Shown here one piece after another: positions 4,054-64,000 of a stretch of 64,000 nt of DNA. Position 1 is the stretch's first letter, and each line of letters begins with the position of its first letter. The position numbers and the translations under genes were made by a program. This DNA comes from Octopus sinensis (lineage: Eukaryota): the NCBI RefSeq assembly GCF_006345805.1, contig NC_042998.1:75888001-75952000 (forward strand), given 5' to 3'. Under the pieces are notes generated by a model that was not told the DNA's origin, searched no databases, and worked only from the letters and a program-made list of their open reading frames with translations.

Positions 4054-4121
<68 letters not shown>

Positions 4122-4328
4122 GTGAAATAGAAAGATGAATAATCTTGTTGTAGATTAATCAAAAGTTAACCGATACCTTAGTAGCAAAAATCACAGCAGT
4201 AAACAGCACGGTTGGAGGTACAACCATCTGGCGTTGCAACCGTGCGTTGGTGCGGATAATTGAAATTAAAACATTATTGGTGAATTGAAGAAATGGAGCT
4301 GAACGCAGATTGAACAGAAATCGTTTTA

Positions 4329-4417
4329 TTTCATTCTACACGTGTTTCGAAAGGCACAAATTACCAAAATCCGATTGAATAATGGGACCATATTGTGTCT
4401 TTCTCTTCAGGAAGAAA
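4329..4417 (-). ncRNA. Type I hammerhead ribozyme motif (mirror arm)
   Basis: Reverse complement of the motif at 5326-5414. Confidence 0.75.
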
Positions 4418-5095
4418 AAAGGAAATCCGTTAGAGAAACAAAAACAGAACAGAGGCGGAGCAAAAACCAAATCGAACTATGCTCCTAAGAGCCCATGGCG
4501 AAACTGTTTATCAGTGTATGCTGAGAACCGGTGGCTGAAGAATTCTACAGGTCAGGCATCGGTCAATCATGTGGGTGAGGGTGTATAGATGTTCTTAGTG
4601 ACCGAGAATAAGTTCTGACTATTTAAGGAATATTGGATGTTTTATAAGGGGCGAGAAAAAATCTACTTAGAGACGTGTGTGTGTGTATACTGTTCTATAT
4701 ATGTGTGTGTTGGCGTAGGGGTAGAAAACACTTTTTGTGTACGTGTGTGCGTTTGATCGTTCGGCTGTCAGTGGCTACTGCCGTGATAACCGTTGGGTGG
4801 CAGAAAGAAAAAAATATATATATATTATGTATTATGTGTGTGTGTGTTCATCTGAGCCTGCGGGGGGTTTCCTTGACAAGGCAGGCTCAGATGAACACAC
4901 ACACACATAATACATAATATATATATATTTTTTTCTTTCTGCCACCCAACGGTTATCACGGCAGTAGCCACTGACAGCCGAACGATCAAACGCACACACG
5001 TACACAAAAAGTGTTTTCTACCCCTACGCCAACACACACATATATAGAACAGTATACACACACACACGTCTCTAAGTAGATTTTTTCTCGCCCCT

Positions 5096-5130
5096 TATAA
5101 AACATCCAATATTCCTTAAATAGTCAGAAC
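5096..5130 (+). promoter_or_regulatory. Putative Pol II core promoter of the element (TATAAAA plus Inr-like agTCAGaa 28 nt downstream)
   Basis: Same TATAAAA..agtcagaa arrangement recurs at 24706-24741 in a different Penelope pseudo-LTR. Confidence 0.5.
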
Positions 5131-5325
5131 TTTATTCTCGGTCACTAAGAATATCTATACACCCTCACCCACATGATTTACCGATGCCTGACCTGTAGAA
5201 TTCTTCAGCCACCGGTTCTCAGCATACACTGATAAACAGTTTCGCCATGGGCTCTTAGGAGCATAGTTCGATTTGGTTTTTGCTCCGCCTCTGTTCTGTT
5301 TTTGTTTCTCTAACGGATTTCCTTT

Positions 5326-5414
5326 TTTCTTCCTGAAGAGAAAGACACAATATGGTCCCATTATTCAATCGGATTTTGGTAATTTGTGCCTTTCGAAACA
5401 CGTGTAGAATGAAA
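5326..5414 (+). ncRNA. Type I hammerhead ribozyme motif
   Basis: ttc-CTGAAGA-gaaagacacaa..ttgtgcctttc-GAA-ACACGTGT-A-gaa: intact core, long stem II, palindromic stem III, GUA cleavage triplet. Confidence 0.75.
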
Positions 5415-5482
5415 TAAAACGATTTCTGTTCAATCTGCGTTCAGCTCCATTTCTTCAATTCACCAATAATGTTTTATATATA

Positions 5483-5528
<46 letters not shown>

Positions 5529-8167: not shown

Positions 8168-9428
8168 CGGGGTTTCCTAGAAATATTTACCCATTAATAT
8201 TTCTTAATTATTCAAAATAAACTTAAGGTAGGATAATGAAATTTGGCACACATGTTCTAATGTAAACTGTTAATCCATTGCTATAACTACATTTCAAATT
8301 GGTTACCTTTCTCCTTGATCATAGCCTGCAAACGAGTGGTCACTGAGATACATGAGCACCGTACCACCTCTTCATTCAATTTGACCTATGGAGACAGAAG
8401 GGCTTTTTTCAAATCTGACACATTTGAAAAGGAGTGAGCAGAAACATTACTCTCTAAGATGGACCAGATAGCAAAGTCCATTGGATTGATGTCTGGATCT
8501 GAGGGAGGCCATCTCACCTTGTCCCAAAAACCACTGAAATGTTCTTTGCACCACCTCTGTGTCAAATTGGATGTGTGGGCCGGAGTCCCGTTTTAAGTGA
8601 AGATGTAACAGTCACCAACGTTTTGTGTGAGCCGAGTTAACACTTTCTCATCCAACATTTCTACATAAATTTCCCTCTTGATCTTGACGCCAGCATCGAT
8701 GAAGACCAAGGGAGACTTGGACCCATCAGATGCCACTGGCTTCTGACGGCATAAATGACTCCTATTACTTTCAGGCAAGTCTTCTGCATCACGTGCATAA
8801 AACCTGTCACTCTTCCTATTGTTAACTGCTTCCACAGTGAAGATCTTTTCGTCGGATAAGATCAACACTTTGTTAGCGGTGCGCTTCATCTCAGCTAACA
8901 TAATTTTACCCCTTTCGAGCTATTTCTTCTTGGAAGCTGCTGAAATTAACTAGCGGGATTGTTTCTTGTATGCACTTAGCTTTAAATTCTCTTTAAAAAT
9001 CCTGTCTATTGACGATTTCGAAATACCAAGATCTTTTGCAGTTTTTATTGCACTTCTGTGGGGATTTCGGTTCATTCGCTTCTTCACAGCTTCAACAGTT
9101 TGTTTGGTATGAATCGATCGTTTCCTACCAGAAATTGGCTGGCTAGAAGTAGTAGCGGACTTCATATATCGTTTCCAGGCACTGAACACTGTTTTACAGC
9201 ACACATTCAACTGTTTTGTTATGTCCTTGTTGCTCACTCCAGCTGTCGTCTAAGTGATAATCTGGTCACGTTTTGCTTTCGCCGCCATGTTTGTTCACAA
9301 ACTTGTTATAGACGAACGAAACAATAGAGAGATGAACAAAAGACGTATGCAAATCTTTATGTAAAATATTATCTGAACCGATAGGTTTTAGGAAGAGTTT
9401 TAAACATGGGTAAATCTTTCTGGGACCT

Positions 9429-42951: not shown

Positions 42952-43009
42952 TATATATACGTTTAAATATTTTATTGGCTAACCTGGCAAAATGACCATT
43001 CCGAAATAT

Positions 43010-43045
<36 letters not shown>

Positions 43046-43102
43046 CATTATTGGTGAATTGAAGAAATGGAGCTGAATGCAGATTGAACAGAAATCGTTT
43101 TA

Positions 43103-43191
43103 TTTCATTCTACACGTGTTTCGAAAGGCACAAATTACCAAAATCTGATTGAATAATGGGACCATATTGTGTCTTTCTCTTCAGGAAGAAA
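43103..43191 (-). ncRNA. Type I hammerhead motif
   Basis: Same motif as 5326-5414. Confidence 0.75.
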
Positions 43192-44096
43192 AAAGGAAAT
43201 CCGTTGGAAAAACAAAAACAGAACAGAGGCAGAGCAAAAAACAAATCGAACTGTGCTCCTAAGAGCCCATGGCGAAACTGTTTATCAGTGTATGTTGAGA
43301 ACCGGTGGCTGAAGAATTCAACAGGTCAGGCATCGGTCAAACATGTGGGTGAGGGTGTATAGATGTTCTTTGTGACCGAGAATAAAGTTCTGACTATTTA
43401 AAGAATATTGGATGTTTTATAAGGGGCGAGAAAAAATCTACTTAGAGACGTGTGTGTGTGTATACTGTTCTATATATGTGTGTGTTGGCGTAGGGGTAGA
43501 AAACATTTTTTGTGTACGTGTGTGCGTTTGATCGTTCGGCTGTCAGTGGCTACTGCCGTGATAACCGTTGGGTGGCAGAAAGAAAAAAAATAAAGAAATT
43601 ATATATATATATTTTATGTTTTATGTGTGTGTGTGTGTGTTCATCTGTGAACACACACACACACACATAAAACATAAAATATATATATAATTCTTTATTT
43701 TTTTTCTTTCTGCCACCCAACGGTTATCACGGCAGTAGCCACTGACAGCCGAACGATCAAACGCACACACGTACACAAAAAATGTTTTCTACCCCTACGC
43801 CAACACACACATATATAGAACAGTATACACACACACACGTCTCTAAGTAGATTTTTTCTCGCCCCTTATAAAACATCCAATATTCTTTAAATAGTCAGAA
43901 CTTTATTCTCGGTCACAAAGAACATCTATACACCCTCACCCACATGTTTGACCGATGCCTGACCTGTTGAATTCTTCAGCCACCGGTTCTCAACATACAC
44001 TGATAAACAGTTTCGCCATGGGCTCTTAGGAGCACAGTTCGATTTGTTTTTTGCTCTGCCTCTGTTCTGTTTTTGTTTTTCCAACGGATTTCCTTT

Positions 44097-44185
44097 TTTC
44101 TTCCTGAAGAGAAAGACACAATATGGTCCCATTATTCAATCGGATTTTGGTAATTTGTGCCTTTCGAAACACGTGTAGAATGAAA
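44097..44185 (+). ncRNA. Type I hammerhead motif
   Basis: CTGAAGA at 44104, GAAACACGTGTA at 44166. Confidence 0.75.
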
Positions 44186-44393
44186 TAAAACGATTTCTGT
44201 TCAATCTGCATTCAGCTCCATTTCTTCAATTCACCAATAATGTTTTAATTTCAATTATCCGCACCAACGCACGGTTGCAACGCCAGATGGTTGTACCTCC
44301 AACCGTGCTGTTCACTGCTGTGATTTTTGCTACTAAGGTATCGGTTAAACTTTTGATTAATCTACTACAAGATTATTCATCTTTCTATTTCAC

Positions 44394-44447
<54 letters not shown>

Positions 44448-54205: not shown

Positions 54206-54996
54206 TACTTGGTCTGATCAATAAATATCCGGACTGTTGCCATAGTAACGAAGCTAAAACGCGCAGAGTAAAGCTGCTTGGCACGCACAGATTGACCTTG
54301 AACTCTGCTGTTCTAGCTCACTTCCGCTCTTTGCAACAGTGCTTGGAAGAAAAGTGTGTAGCGTGTGATCGCCGCATTGGCCATAACAGAGAAAGTTGAG
54401 CAAAGTTTTCGAAACCTTTTCACCGTTTTCGACACAATCAAGGATATCTTGTACAACTGCAACTCAAATGTCCTTTTGGTGAGTTGAAAGCAGTTTTGGC
54501 ACAAATTTAGCAGAGACGCGTCTCATACCCAAATCTTCTGTGATAATGGACTGAACTGAACAGTAACTAATCTGCACATCCTCTGATAACTCACGGATGG
54601 TGGTTCGATGATTTCCCTTCACATCTGCGATGTTTTTCTCAGTTCTGCTGGTTGTGGGTCTCCCTGAACGTTCGTCAATATCAACATTTTTCGGCCATCT
54701 TGGAAACGTCTGAACAACTCGGACACTTGTGTGTGGCTTATACACTCCTCTCCCTACATTTTCTGCGTCTTTGCGTAGGCCTGTTGGCAGGTATCGCCAT
54801 GACAACTTTCTGTCATGGTCAATGCGACGATCACACGCTACACACCTTTCTTCGAAGCACTGCTGTAAACAGCGGAAGTGATCTAGAACATTAAAACTTA
54901 ATGCCTATACACAACAGTGCTGAAGGTCAATATTAGCCAAGCGGCTTCACTCTGCGTGCTTTAGCTTCCTTACTATGGTAACATTCCGGATATTTT
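54206..54996. mobile_element. Mariner-derived element with two inverted 5' ends
   Basis: 54218-54400 inverted at 54803-54996; minus strand encodes DERSGRPTTSRT..TIRELSEDVQISYCSVQSIITEDLGMRRVSAKFVPKLL. Confidence 0.85.
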
Positions 54997-61419: not shown

Positions 61420-62600
61420 TATTCACGTCGTTGAATTTTTGAATTTCTGAATTCAGTTTTGTTGTTGCAATAAAAGGTGTGATTACGTATTTGGATAATA
61501 TATTAAAGTTTTAAAGTTTTCTTGAGATGTTCGTTTGTCTGTCCAGTTGGAGAATACAGTAGGACTTTTGCAATGAAAAGGATGTTTACATTTTCGAATA
61601 ATCAGGGAGATTCAAAAAGAAAAGACAAGTTGTATATTGTAAATTTTTAAGATTTACTAAATATGGTCTTTTGTATGACCGCACAAAGAGAAATGGTAGT
61701 GTTCTTAGAAGAAAAAATAGGAGGATGTTTACATTTTCGAATACTCAGGGAGGGAGGAAAGGATAAGTATGTAAGATATCAATGGCTTTTTTTTTAAGCT
61801 GGTCGTTTGTGTGTTAGAAAGCTGTAGGTATATAAGTTTCCTAACTTATTTCATTTTGAGGGAGATTTAAAATATTCACAGGAAATTGTAAATATTCCAG
61901 ACTTTGGGAATAGTAGGAGGAAGAGATATTCACCTTGTTGGATTTTTGAATTTCTGAATTTCTTTTTCTTTTGGAATTTTTCTTTTCTTTTTAAAAGTTT
62001 TGCTGTGGTGTACTGTTTTTGTAGTTGTGCTGTATGTATATATTGGCAGGTGCTGCCTTAATTTCTTATCGTGTTTTTTACAATAAAAGGCATGCTTACA
62101 TATTCTGTTAGTCTGGGAAGGACAAAGTGTTCACACAAAGTTGGAGATATTAAAGTTTCTAACTTTTTTGAGGTGTTCGTTTGATGTCTGTTCAGAAAAA
62201 ACTGTGGTGTTTTTTCTTTTCCTTCTTTTTTTTACAATAAAAAGGATGTTTACATTTTCGAATATTCAGGGAAAAGGAACGGAAAGAAAAGGAAGGTAAA
62301 ATTTTTTCACAGAAAATTGTAGATATGAAGTGTTTAAAATTTACTGGAGATGAACAAAGAAAACTGTAATGTTCTTGGATGTAATGTAAAGAGGATGTTT
62401 ACATTTTCGAATACTCAGGGGGAAAGGAAATGATAGGTATTCACAGAGGGTGTAGATATTAAAGGTTTTAAAGCTGATTGTTTATGTGTTCGAAAGCTGT
62501 AGATATGTAAGTTCCTTAACTTATTTTGAGGGAAATTCAAAATACTCACAGGAAACTGTAGATATCCCAGTCTTTTATAGTTATTTTTCAGTTTTCCTGC
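61420..62600. repeat. Degenerate internally duplicated AT-rich repeat
   Basis: aggatgtttacattttcgaata four times (~61580, 61722, 62243, 62392); gaaagctgtag..taagtt at ~61817 and 62491. Confidence 0.7.
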
Positions 62601-62694
62601 TGGGTTGTATTAGTGTTTCTGTGTCTTCGGCTGCTGACAGGTCAGAGCAGCGAAGAACACGTCCAGCCCCTGTTACGCCCAGCCGCCTAATTCA

Positions 62695-64000
62695 CATCGA
62701 AAAAGGCAATACGGTAGACAATTACAGGCCGATATCCTGTTTGCCACTTATGTGGAAGTTATTGACTGGAATACTCACAGAGTCAATGTACGAACACCTG
62801 GAAAAAATGGAGTCCTGCCACATGAGCTGAAGGGTTGCAAGCGTAAGTGCAGAGGTACTAAGGATCAACTCCTGGTCGACAAAACTGTACTTACAAGAGG
62901 AGGAAAAGTAACTTAGCCATGTCATGGATCGACTATCGTAAGGCGTACGATATGATCCCACATTCTTGAATTATGGAATGTATGAACCTATTTGGTATTG
63001 CATCGAATGTTGAGCGATTGCTTGGAAAAAGTATGGCGAATTGGAGGACGGATCTGACAGCATACGGAAGAAGTTTAGGGACAGTAGAAATTAGGAGGTG
63101 CATCTTCCAAGGGGACTGCCTGTTCCCACTGATCTTTATACTGTGCTTGATACCACTAACACTGATTATGAGGAAAGCAAAAGCTGGGTATGTATTCAAA
63201 AGCCGCCAACAAAATGCCAACCATTTGTTATTCATGGACGACCTCAAACTTTATGGTAAAAATGAAGCCCAGGTCAGTTCCCTCGGTAATACGGTGTATA
63301 CCTTCAGTGCTGATATCAGAATGGATTTCGGACTGAAAAAGAGTGGTGTGTTAGTCTTGAAGAGAGGCAAAATCAAATGTATGGACGGGCTAACGATACC
63401 GTCCGGGGAGGTTATGAAGCAGATAGAAGAGACGGGCTATAAGTACTTGGGGATTTTGAAAATGGATAAATTGATGGAAAAAGAAATGACAGAAAAATTT
63501 AAGGTGGAGTACTTGAGCAGACTGAGACTGATCCTTAAGTAGAAATTAAACGGACGGAATAAGGTCGAAGCTATCAACACCTGGGCGGTTTCACTCCTTA
63601 GATATGGAGCAGGGGTAATTGCATGGACAGTAGACGAACTAAACAGCTTAGACAGAGAGACAAGCTGCTAACTAGATATGGGTTACTCCACCCAAAAAGT
63701 GACACAGACTGTATGTACCAAGAAAAATGAGGGGGAAGAGGACTTATTGGATGCGAACACAGCATTACAGCAGAAGAAAACAACATAGCATGGTATGTAA
63801 AAAATGCCGCAGAACCACTATTATTAGAAGTAAGAAGGTCAGACTTGTGTAGGATGAAAGATTGCAAACATAAAGCACTATACAAGAAATTGAAAACGAA
63901 TGAAACTGAAAATAGGTGGGTAAAGAAAAGAATGCATGGTCAATTTCATAGGAATGTTGAAGATAAGACAGAAAAAAGATGGCTGTGGATGATTAAAAGT
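62695..64000 (+). mobile_element. 5'-truncated R4/Dong-clade LINE reverse transcriptase, runs off the window
   Basis: [20 protein letters not shown]; WIDYRKAYDMIPH; IFQGDCLFPLIF; HLLFMDDLKLY; GYKYLGI; MHGQF; several stops and frameshifts. Confidence 0.9.

Follow-up and report, generated by a model that had tools for sequence, protein, structure and literature searches.

We conclude, at a probability of about 95%, that both hairpins found in a window of 64,000 nucleotides of Octopus sinensis (contig NC_042998.1, positions 75,888,001 to 75,952,000) are 5′-truncated, independent insertions of an autonomous 3.63-kb Hydra-like Penelope-like element (PLE). An inverted partner, a one-sided tail, a hammerhead ribozyme and a (TA)n target have all been described for PLEs before, and the locus is an ordinary product of a known class; what this study adds is a quantified rule, followed across the element family, that one tailed arm is paired with one tail-less arm. 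Our best model for the origin of such insertions, in which we have moderate confidence, is twin priming at fixed sites on one RNA, with two reverse transcription (RT) events starting from both ends of the cut target.

The window hairpins and their parent element

Positions in the element are given as q, the position in a natural 3,628-bp unit (L033:499-4126) numbered from the tail end; in the long arm of copy 1, q is the window position minus 4117, and the sense strand of the element runs from high to low q (Table 1). The original prediction of ~595-bp arms in both copies, a ~150-bp tail on one side only (149 bp on re-examination), a common short-arm end and (TA)n flanks holds for both hairpins. 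Over ~595 bp the arms of copy 1 are 2 substitutions and 1 indel apart, and those of copy 2, simple repeats set aside, are one substitution apart. The parent stop codon lies 5′ of the stretch kept in the tailed arm of copy 1, and besides the two hairpins, which hold 3′ UTR only, no other pieces of the parent element were found in the window. In tandem copies the 149-nt tail runs into the 5′ UTR of the next unit; its fold is better than that of shuffled sequences (z −2.5, 3 of 200 shuffles being equally good).

Table 1. Window coordinates of the two hairpins and of the sites within them
Feature	Window position	Strand	Element position and remarks
Copy 1 left flank, (TA)n target	4091-4117
Copy 1 tail	4118-4266	−	q1-149, 149 nt; q1 is the distal insertion end
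Copy 1 tailed (long) arm	4120-4861	−	q3-746; non-coding 3′ UTR/pseudo-LTR, 99.5% to natural unit L033
Type I hammerhead (mirror), copy 1 tailed arm	4331-4416 (4410-4337)	−	predicted cut after 4337
Mirror of the Inr-like site, copy 1	4505	−
Copy 1 inverted tail-less (short) arm	4860-5476	+	q767 to q150
TATA-like and Inr-like site	5092-5130	+	~q500; 7 arm ends at q484-502; possible weaker start
Inr-like site with DPE-like pentamer (+28 to +32)	5236-5269 (A at 5238)	+	A is q388; arm-end pile q380-394
Type I hammerhead, copy 1 tail-less arm	5327-5412 (5333-5406)	+	CUGAAGA core at 5333-5339; stem II extended, stem III a palindrome; predicted cut after 5406
Copy 1 right flank, (TA)n target	5477-5524
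Copy 2 tail-less arm	43041-43647	−	q150-739
Type I hammerhead, copy 2 tail-less arm	43184-43111	−
Copy 2 tailed arm	43655-44397	+	q732 to q1 (q732-3 at 43655-44395); tail 44248-44397
Type I hammerhead, copy 2 tailed arm	44104-44177	+

Copy 2 is an insertion independent of copy 1, with other subfamily alleles. A local duplication of copy 1 was ruled out by the different alleles, junction and flanks, the non-repeat flanks of the two copies having no similarity. The difference between GGAKTKSNY and GRAKNKSNC in the translated arms is real, but the substitutions that separate the copies, which had been called copy-specific, are mostly subfamily alleles common to other loci.

The arms belong to a coding element. 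For most of the 30 loci examined first, shared sequence extends beyond the arm, and in longer stretches of 31 loci a 3,628-bp unit is repeated head to tail (e.g., L033, L041, L046). The tandem joint occurs 77 times in the 2.72-Gb assembly and is also present in contigs of two public DNA runs; in these runs the depth at the 5′ end is ~25- to 50-fold lower than at the 3′ end. The unit encodes, in a single ORF, a reverse transcriptase followed by a C-terminal nuclease-like domain (GIY-YIG), and L200 retains an uninterrupted 867-aa frame with DKT, YRDD and the C-terminal nuclease-like part. Thus, the Penelope-like origin that had been proposed is borne out, the arm being the 3′ UTR of a 3.63-kb RT + GIY-YIG element, whereas the proposal of a non-autonomous family fails because the arm belongs to this element and most copies continue into it. 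The family is young, as had been suggested. The loci L191, L170, L200 and L093 (7-8.5 kb) hold two near-full units in tandem or inverted arrangement and are candidate source copies.

The parent protein has 543 homologues. Among the 120 listed, DKT is present in 108, RWK in 90, YRDD in 119 and CxCX5C in 92, and the DKT, FD and YRDD columns are conserved in an alignment with 90 homologues. Among 50 aligned members Pfam recognized RVT_1 in 2 and GIY-YIG in 4, the query itself having no match, and a PDB profile search with the parent protein gave 0 hits. This protein has DKT instead of DKG and RWL where most of the listed homologues have RWK; it has no CCHH, and CxxC and CxH stand beside conserved E and N. 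The CxCX5C linker ahead of the nuclease is absent in P0002, in P0123 and in every copy aligned, and (TA)n targeting is strict despite this loss, TA runs making up 187 of 190 flanks of inverted loci. A Ser/Asn-rich insert precedes the nuclease (parent protein at L200:4488-7088 and L033:1397-2212) and recalls the Asn-rich inserts of rotifer Penelopes (PMC3846280).

Each of the four arms carries one type I hammerhead core, as predicted, and we regard these as candidate ribozymes. Every arm has the CUGAAGA core, a stem II with a G-C base and a long extension, GAAAC, a palindromic stem III and a GUA cut triplet. As had been claimed, the hammerhead lies in a Penelope-like pseudo-LTR, but the long extension of stem II sets it apart from the minimal type. 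A strict core pattern is matched by 120 of 150 spanning arms. In a narrow search, Rfam Hammerhead_1 scored 14.8 bits on the hammerhead (E 0.83), below the gathering score of 34; across the whole window, Rfam gave only microsatellite-driven miRNA hits among the matches listed (150 of 239). Free folding of the region forms stem II alone (z 0.36), and the palindromic stem III can self-pair (−10.3 kcal/mol), similar to the animal hammerheads described as dependent on dimers (PMC4209133). The two hammerheads of one locus cannot dimerise in cis because they are on opposite strands.

Microsatellites dominated the whole-window repeat search. A 250-bp palindrome (92%) at 28429-28677, one end of which resembles ~42965-43020, just left of the (TA)n flank of copy 2, may represent either a MITE or another family's short inverted insertion. 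At 30118-30880, SINE-like arms of ~300 bp stand head to head around (TA)n, with 99% identity over the outer 227 nt and indels near the run, and represent an inverted pair or an assembly turn-around. Fragments at 18003-18371 (−) and 23919-24248 (+), with cysteines within the core, are presumably like the GIY-YIG nuclease of another PLE type, and we take the reading frames at 62456-63542 and at 8593-9249, 38453-38773 and 54464-54904 to be decayed non-LTR RT-like and Tc1/mariner-like ones.

One tailed and one tail-less arm across the genome

A search of the 2.72-Gb genome with one arm gave 1,992 candidates. The best 40 of these were scored and are biased to tailed, copy-1-like loci; therefore, the counts rest on a position-ordered sample from contig C1, which comprises all 111 probe clusters past 36 Mb, the first 36 Mb being viewed through L062-L091. 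Genome-wide, a 26-mer beside the tail boundary has 2,358 matches; with a longer probe, 906 matches are tail-less and adjoin TA, and 1,110 probe matches continue into the tail. Together with the sampled loci, these counts lead to an estimate of ~1,300 loci. Pairs of like with like would be caught by both probe types.

Inversion is the common state, in line with the inverted partner that had been predicted (95 of 111 loci), and a tailed arm is joined to a tail-less one in 92 of the 95. Tail-less pairs number 0/95 and tailed pairs 1/95, a complex one (L132), with two loci left unclassed for pairing (L113 and L162). All 49 facing probe pairs on C1 likewise consist of one tailed and one tail-less arm. 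Eight of the 16 loci that are not inverted are a lone tail-less arm. The tail-less arm ends at q148-161 in 91 of 92 cases.

The hairpin is not, however, a unit that moves. The original prediction, of a near-total 1.35-kb palindrome as the normal product, does not hold, each junction being unique and arm lengths varying from ~30 bp to >3.6 kb. A non-autonomous family moving as a fixed palindrome of that size would agree with two non-coding copies 39 kb apart with similar centres, but the 24-mers across the junctions of copies 1 and 2 occur once each in 2.72 Gb, the facing pairs on C1 span 72 to 8,341 bp with only 2 of 49 between 1,100 and 1,300 bp, and most copies run on into the coding element; we regard such a family as extremely improbable. 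A fixed palindromic family or MITE was also rejected by the test for recurrent internal junctions (1 match per junction), and a non-LTR retrozyme was rejected on the grounds that the arms are inverted and that the tandem unit is the 3.6-kb coding element rather than a direct non-coding repeat. The fold points of the two window copies, which lie within ~10 bp of each other, had been taken as a family trait; only 2 of 84 simple loci have both arm ends at q700-800. The likeness of the two centres is therefore a coincidence, perhaps aided by a mild local stop region, because junctions are unique, spans are variable and the alleles are common to other loci. Non-palindromic copies with random fold points had been named as evidence against the palindromic-family reading, and fold points do vary widely, but most copies are inverted.

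It is also very improbable that the hairpins are fold-back artefacts of long-read assembly. The near-perfect arms and the frequent single-base indels of assembly type in the copies would fit such an artefact. However, the inversion stops at a fixed position of the element, beyond which come (TA)n and unrelated sequence but no mirrored flank; the tail-less end beside TA is found in contigs of a public DNA run; and the arms differ at a few sites.

Of the 84 simple two-piece loci, 46 have a tail-less arm longer than the tailed one, 26 a shorter one and 12 arms of equal length. The tail-less arm is ahead by >30 nt in 33 of 84 loci, and by kilobases in L045, L059, L167 and L170. In 17 loci the tailed arm is shorter than 150 nt and the arms do not overlap; in 9 of these 17 the tailed arm stops at q80-92, where a hairpin of the tail has its base. 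The two ends of a locus are nonetheless coupled: they lie within 10 nt of each other in 27/84 loci (4.7 by permutation), in 12/41 outside the hot spots (1.3 expected) and within 30 nt in 33/84, both window copies included, and the tail-biased first sample agrees (9/33 within 30 nt vs 1.1 expected). Alleles at common variable sites in 50 loci are discordant between the two arms at 4 of 183, compared with 47% when arms are shuffled, which supports the claim that each hairpin was built from one source. Clean joins overlap by ≥2 nt in 11 of 17 cases (18% expected); this exact count covers 17 of the 84 loci, since of the 42 that could be anchored 25 were broken by variants or inserts. Arm ends were set by BLAST, and microhomology may shift them by several nucleotides. 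The junctions of L132/L052, L156, L182 and L125 are complex: the arms are separated by A/T filler or by short templated fragments, which suggests that copying jumped between templates while the arms were being joined.

Arm ends are concentrated at three places. The main pile, at q380-394 (32/168 vs 2.2 expected; 16 in each arm type), is centred on the A of an Inr-like site at q388, the Inr/DPE pair occurring at 2 places in 3.6 kb. A second lies at q228-241, the foot of hammerhead stem II (13 ends, 6 and 7 by arm, vs 3.6), and a third at q484-502 (7 vs 1.65). At the predicted hammerhead cut site (q214-224) there are 0/168 ends vs 2.95 expected, and hammerhead-cut RNA is ruled out as the template; it appears that the uncut RNA is the template and that the hammerhead is carried along. 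Judging from the cDNA ends and from the consensus motifs behind the Inr-like and DPE-like labels, q388 is likely to be the main 5′ end of the RNA. An internal promoter of this sort is present in the Penelope of D. virilis (PMC2377424). Should the internal starts be functional, one outward RNA carrying a single hammerhead would be expected from each arm, both RNAs being of the same sense. Long dsRNA would require read-through from outside because the promoters of the element would point outward and give same-sense RNAs, and the hammerhead would be buried in such a duplex. Two runs, presumed to be RNA but possibly DNA, cover 27/30 and 30/30 bins of the unit at low depth, which is not evidence of expression. 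No A-to-I editing signature was found in the copies, rare A>G standing at 7.9 per 10,000 vs 15.2 for T>C.

Proposed priming on one RNA and its alternatives

The mechanism is read from finished insertions, and the 16 of 111 loci without inversion count against it as a general route. Firstly, both outer junctions look like primed reverse transcription, because on each side the 3′ end of the (TA)n run continues into antisense element sequence. Secondly, two priming events are the simplest explanation because the tailed arm alone holds q1-149, yet the tail-less arm often reaches further 5′, so that neither arm can in all loci have been copied from its partner. Lastly, a single RNA is favoured because of the use of one of each site per insertion, the shared alleles and the coupled stops. 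We suggest that the GIY-YIG nuclease would cut both strands of (TA)n, after which one 3′-OH would prime at q1, the distal site, and the second at q150, the proximal site 149 nt away, each through a few A/T pairs, and the trailing polymerase would displace the leading cDNA so that the same stretch would be copied twice. Copying would halt where the RNA forms hairpins, is broken or reaches its 5′ end (mostly q388); microhomology of 1-5 nt would then join the two cDNAs before fill-in. For short insertions that stop at q388, priming may have taken place at the upstream tail in a partial-tandem transcript, and for the window copies, which run past q388, in the downstream pseudo-LTR.

In vitro, the PLE protein of the anole cuts both strands and extends them, starting at two internal RNA sites that flank the tail; it is predicted to dimerise, and hammerhead cleavage is not required (PMC11167929). 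In that system the start site is the same on both strands, and such equal use does not by itself explain the strict asymmetry of the octopus insertions. The predicted dimer, together with the dual priming proposed for L1 (PMC2837659), lends some credit to priming on two RNAs, in which a dimer would hold two RNAs transcribed from one source copy, the distal and proximal sites being allotted to the two target ends by an asymmetric complex. This would account for both directions of arm-length difference, for non-overlapping arms and for the common hot spots, but an extra rule would be needed against tailed/tailed and tail-less/tail-less pairs, and it predicts neither the coupling of ends outside the hot spots nor an allele discordance of 2% where several alleles are near 50%. 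We consider it unlikely, while noting that shared arm alleles would also follow if a single source copy were active per cell.

Fold-back self-priming, related to that proposed by Arkhipova et al. (2013) (PMC3846280), would have the cDNA turn on itself and copy to q150 before the nuclease resolves it, later one-sided deletions blurring the centre. The one-sided tail and the shared alleles would follow directly, short overlaps at junctions and the 12 loci with equal arms agree with it, and the 33/84 loci with ends within 30 nt suit it equally well; the window copies alone, having near-equal arms, cannot separate fold-back from priming on one RNA or on two. The rest of the family is less accommodating. 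The tail-less arm that outruns its partner, in some loci by kilobases, and the eight lone tail-less arms speak against fold-back, the 17 loci whose arms share nothing cannot be its direct products, and the stop of short tailed arms at a hairpin base suits polymerase stalls better than deletions. Fold-back thus seems to us doubtful, and a weaker candidate than priming on two RNAs.

Relation to known elements and significance

The octopus element shares with the Hydra clade of C-terminal EN+ PLEs, which includes Hydra-1_Obim, the RT-then-nuclease single ORF, DKT, the lack of CCHH, the CxxC/CxH, a canonical hammerhead near the 3′ end and the (TA)n target (Craig et al., 2021; PMC8557442), and an inverted 5′-truncated copy is recorded there for Penelope-13_HM. 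It differs from the clade in its length (3.63 kb, where members are generally <3 kb), in RWL for RWK, in the missing CxCX5C linker, in the Ser/Asn-rich insert before the nuclease and in its 149-bp tail, and its hammerhead is not the one listed for Hydra-1_Obim (2,507 bp). We regard it as Hydra-like, and not a clean member of the clade, because the linker is absent and the unit is longer. EN+ PLEs in general share partial tandems and pseudo-LTRs, an adjacent inverted 5′-truncated copy, a tail at one end and a promoter in the pseudo-LTR (PMC8557442; PMC3846280; PMC2377424), but their published tail is optional and of 30-40 bp, in contrast to the 149-bp tail and the one-each rule described here.

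A biochemical parallel is the Poseidon element PAc of Anolis (Frangieh et al., 2024; PMC11167929): a tail bounded by two internal RT start sites, an AT-rich target, both strands cut and extended, and hammerhead cleavage that can be dispensed with, all of which resembles what the octopus insertions suggest. PAc belongs to another clade, and its start sites are inside the ORF and 30-40 nt apart; the accessible part of that report gives no model for the inverted copy. In the twin or dual priming of L1 (PMC2837659; also treated in 10.1101/2024.12.14.628481), the second target end primes an inverted cDNA, a geometry shared by the 17 non-overlapping loci. However, in L1 this is a variant outcome with variable internal sites and inversion with deletion, whereas here it would be the main route, with a fixed site and mostly duplicated arms. 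Animal non-LTR retrozymes are likewise non-coding, carry a type I hammerhead and are related to PLE pseudo-LTRs (bioRxiv 10.64898/2026.07.22.740005), but they are direct tandem repeats with a hammerhead per unit, and the octopus hairpins are inverted one-off truncations. The term twin priming was not found in the PLE papers searched, a search that left most subscription literature outside, and the idea may stand in older PLE reviews.

How PLEs build tandem and inverted structures, and why microsatellites are favoured, are listed as open questions in PMC8557442. A strict, countable rule in a young family with >2,300 probe matches argues against simple self-priming, and it ties the two-start result obtained in vitro to the inverted copy; for a direct test, the family also supplies two defined RNA sites and a naturally occurring coding copy of near-full length. 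Because (TA)n targeting persists although the linker zinc finger has been lost, the link proposed between that motif and target choice is weakened. We see even odds that this family normally inserts by programmed twin priming, with the tail and the inverted pseudo-LTR as two traces of one reaction, and that the linker zinc finger is not needed for (TA)n targeting. If so, one type of reaction would have produced >1,000 custom-made hairpins in this genome. The many long inverted repeats may feed dsRNA pathways under host read-through transcription.
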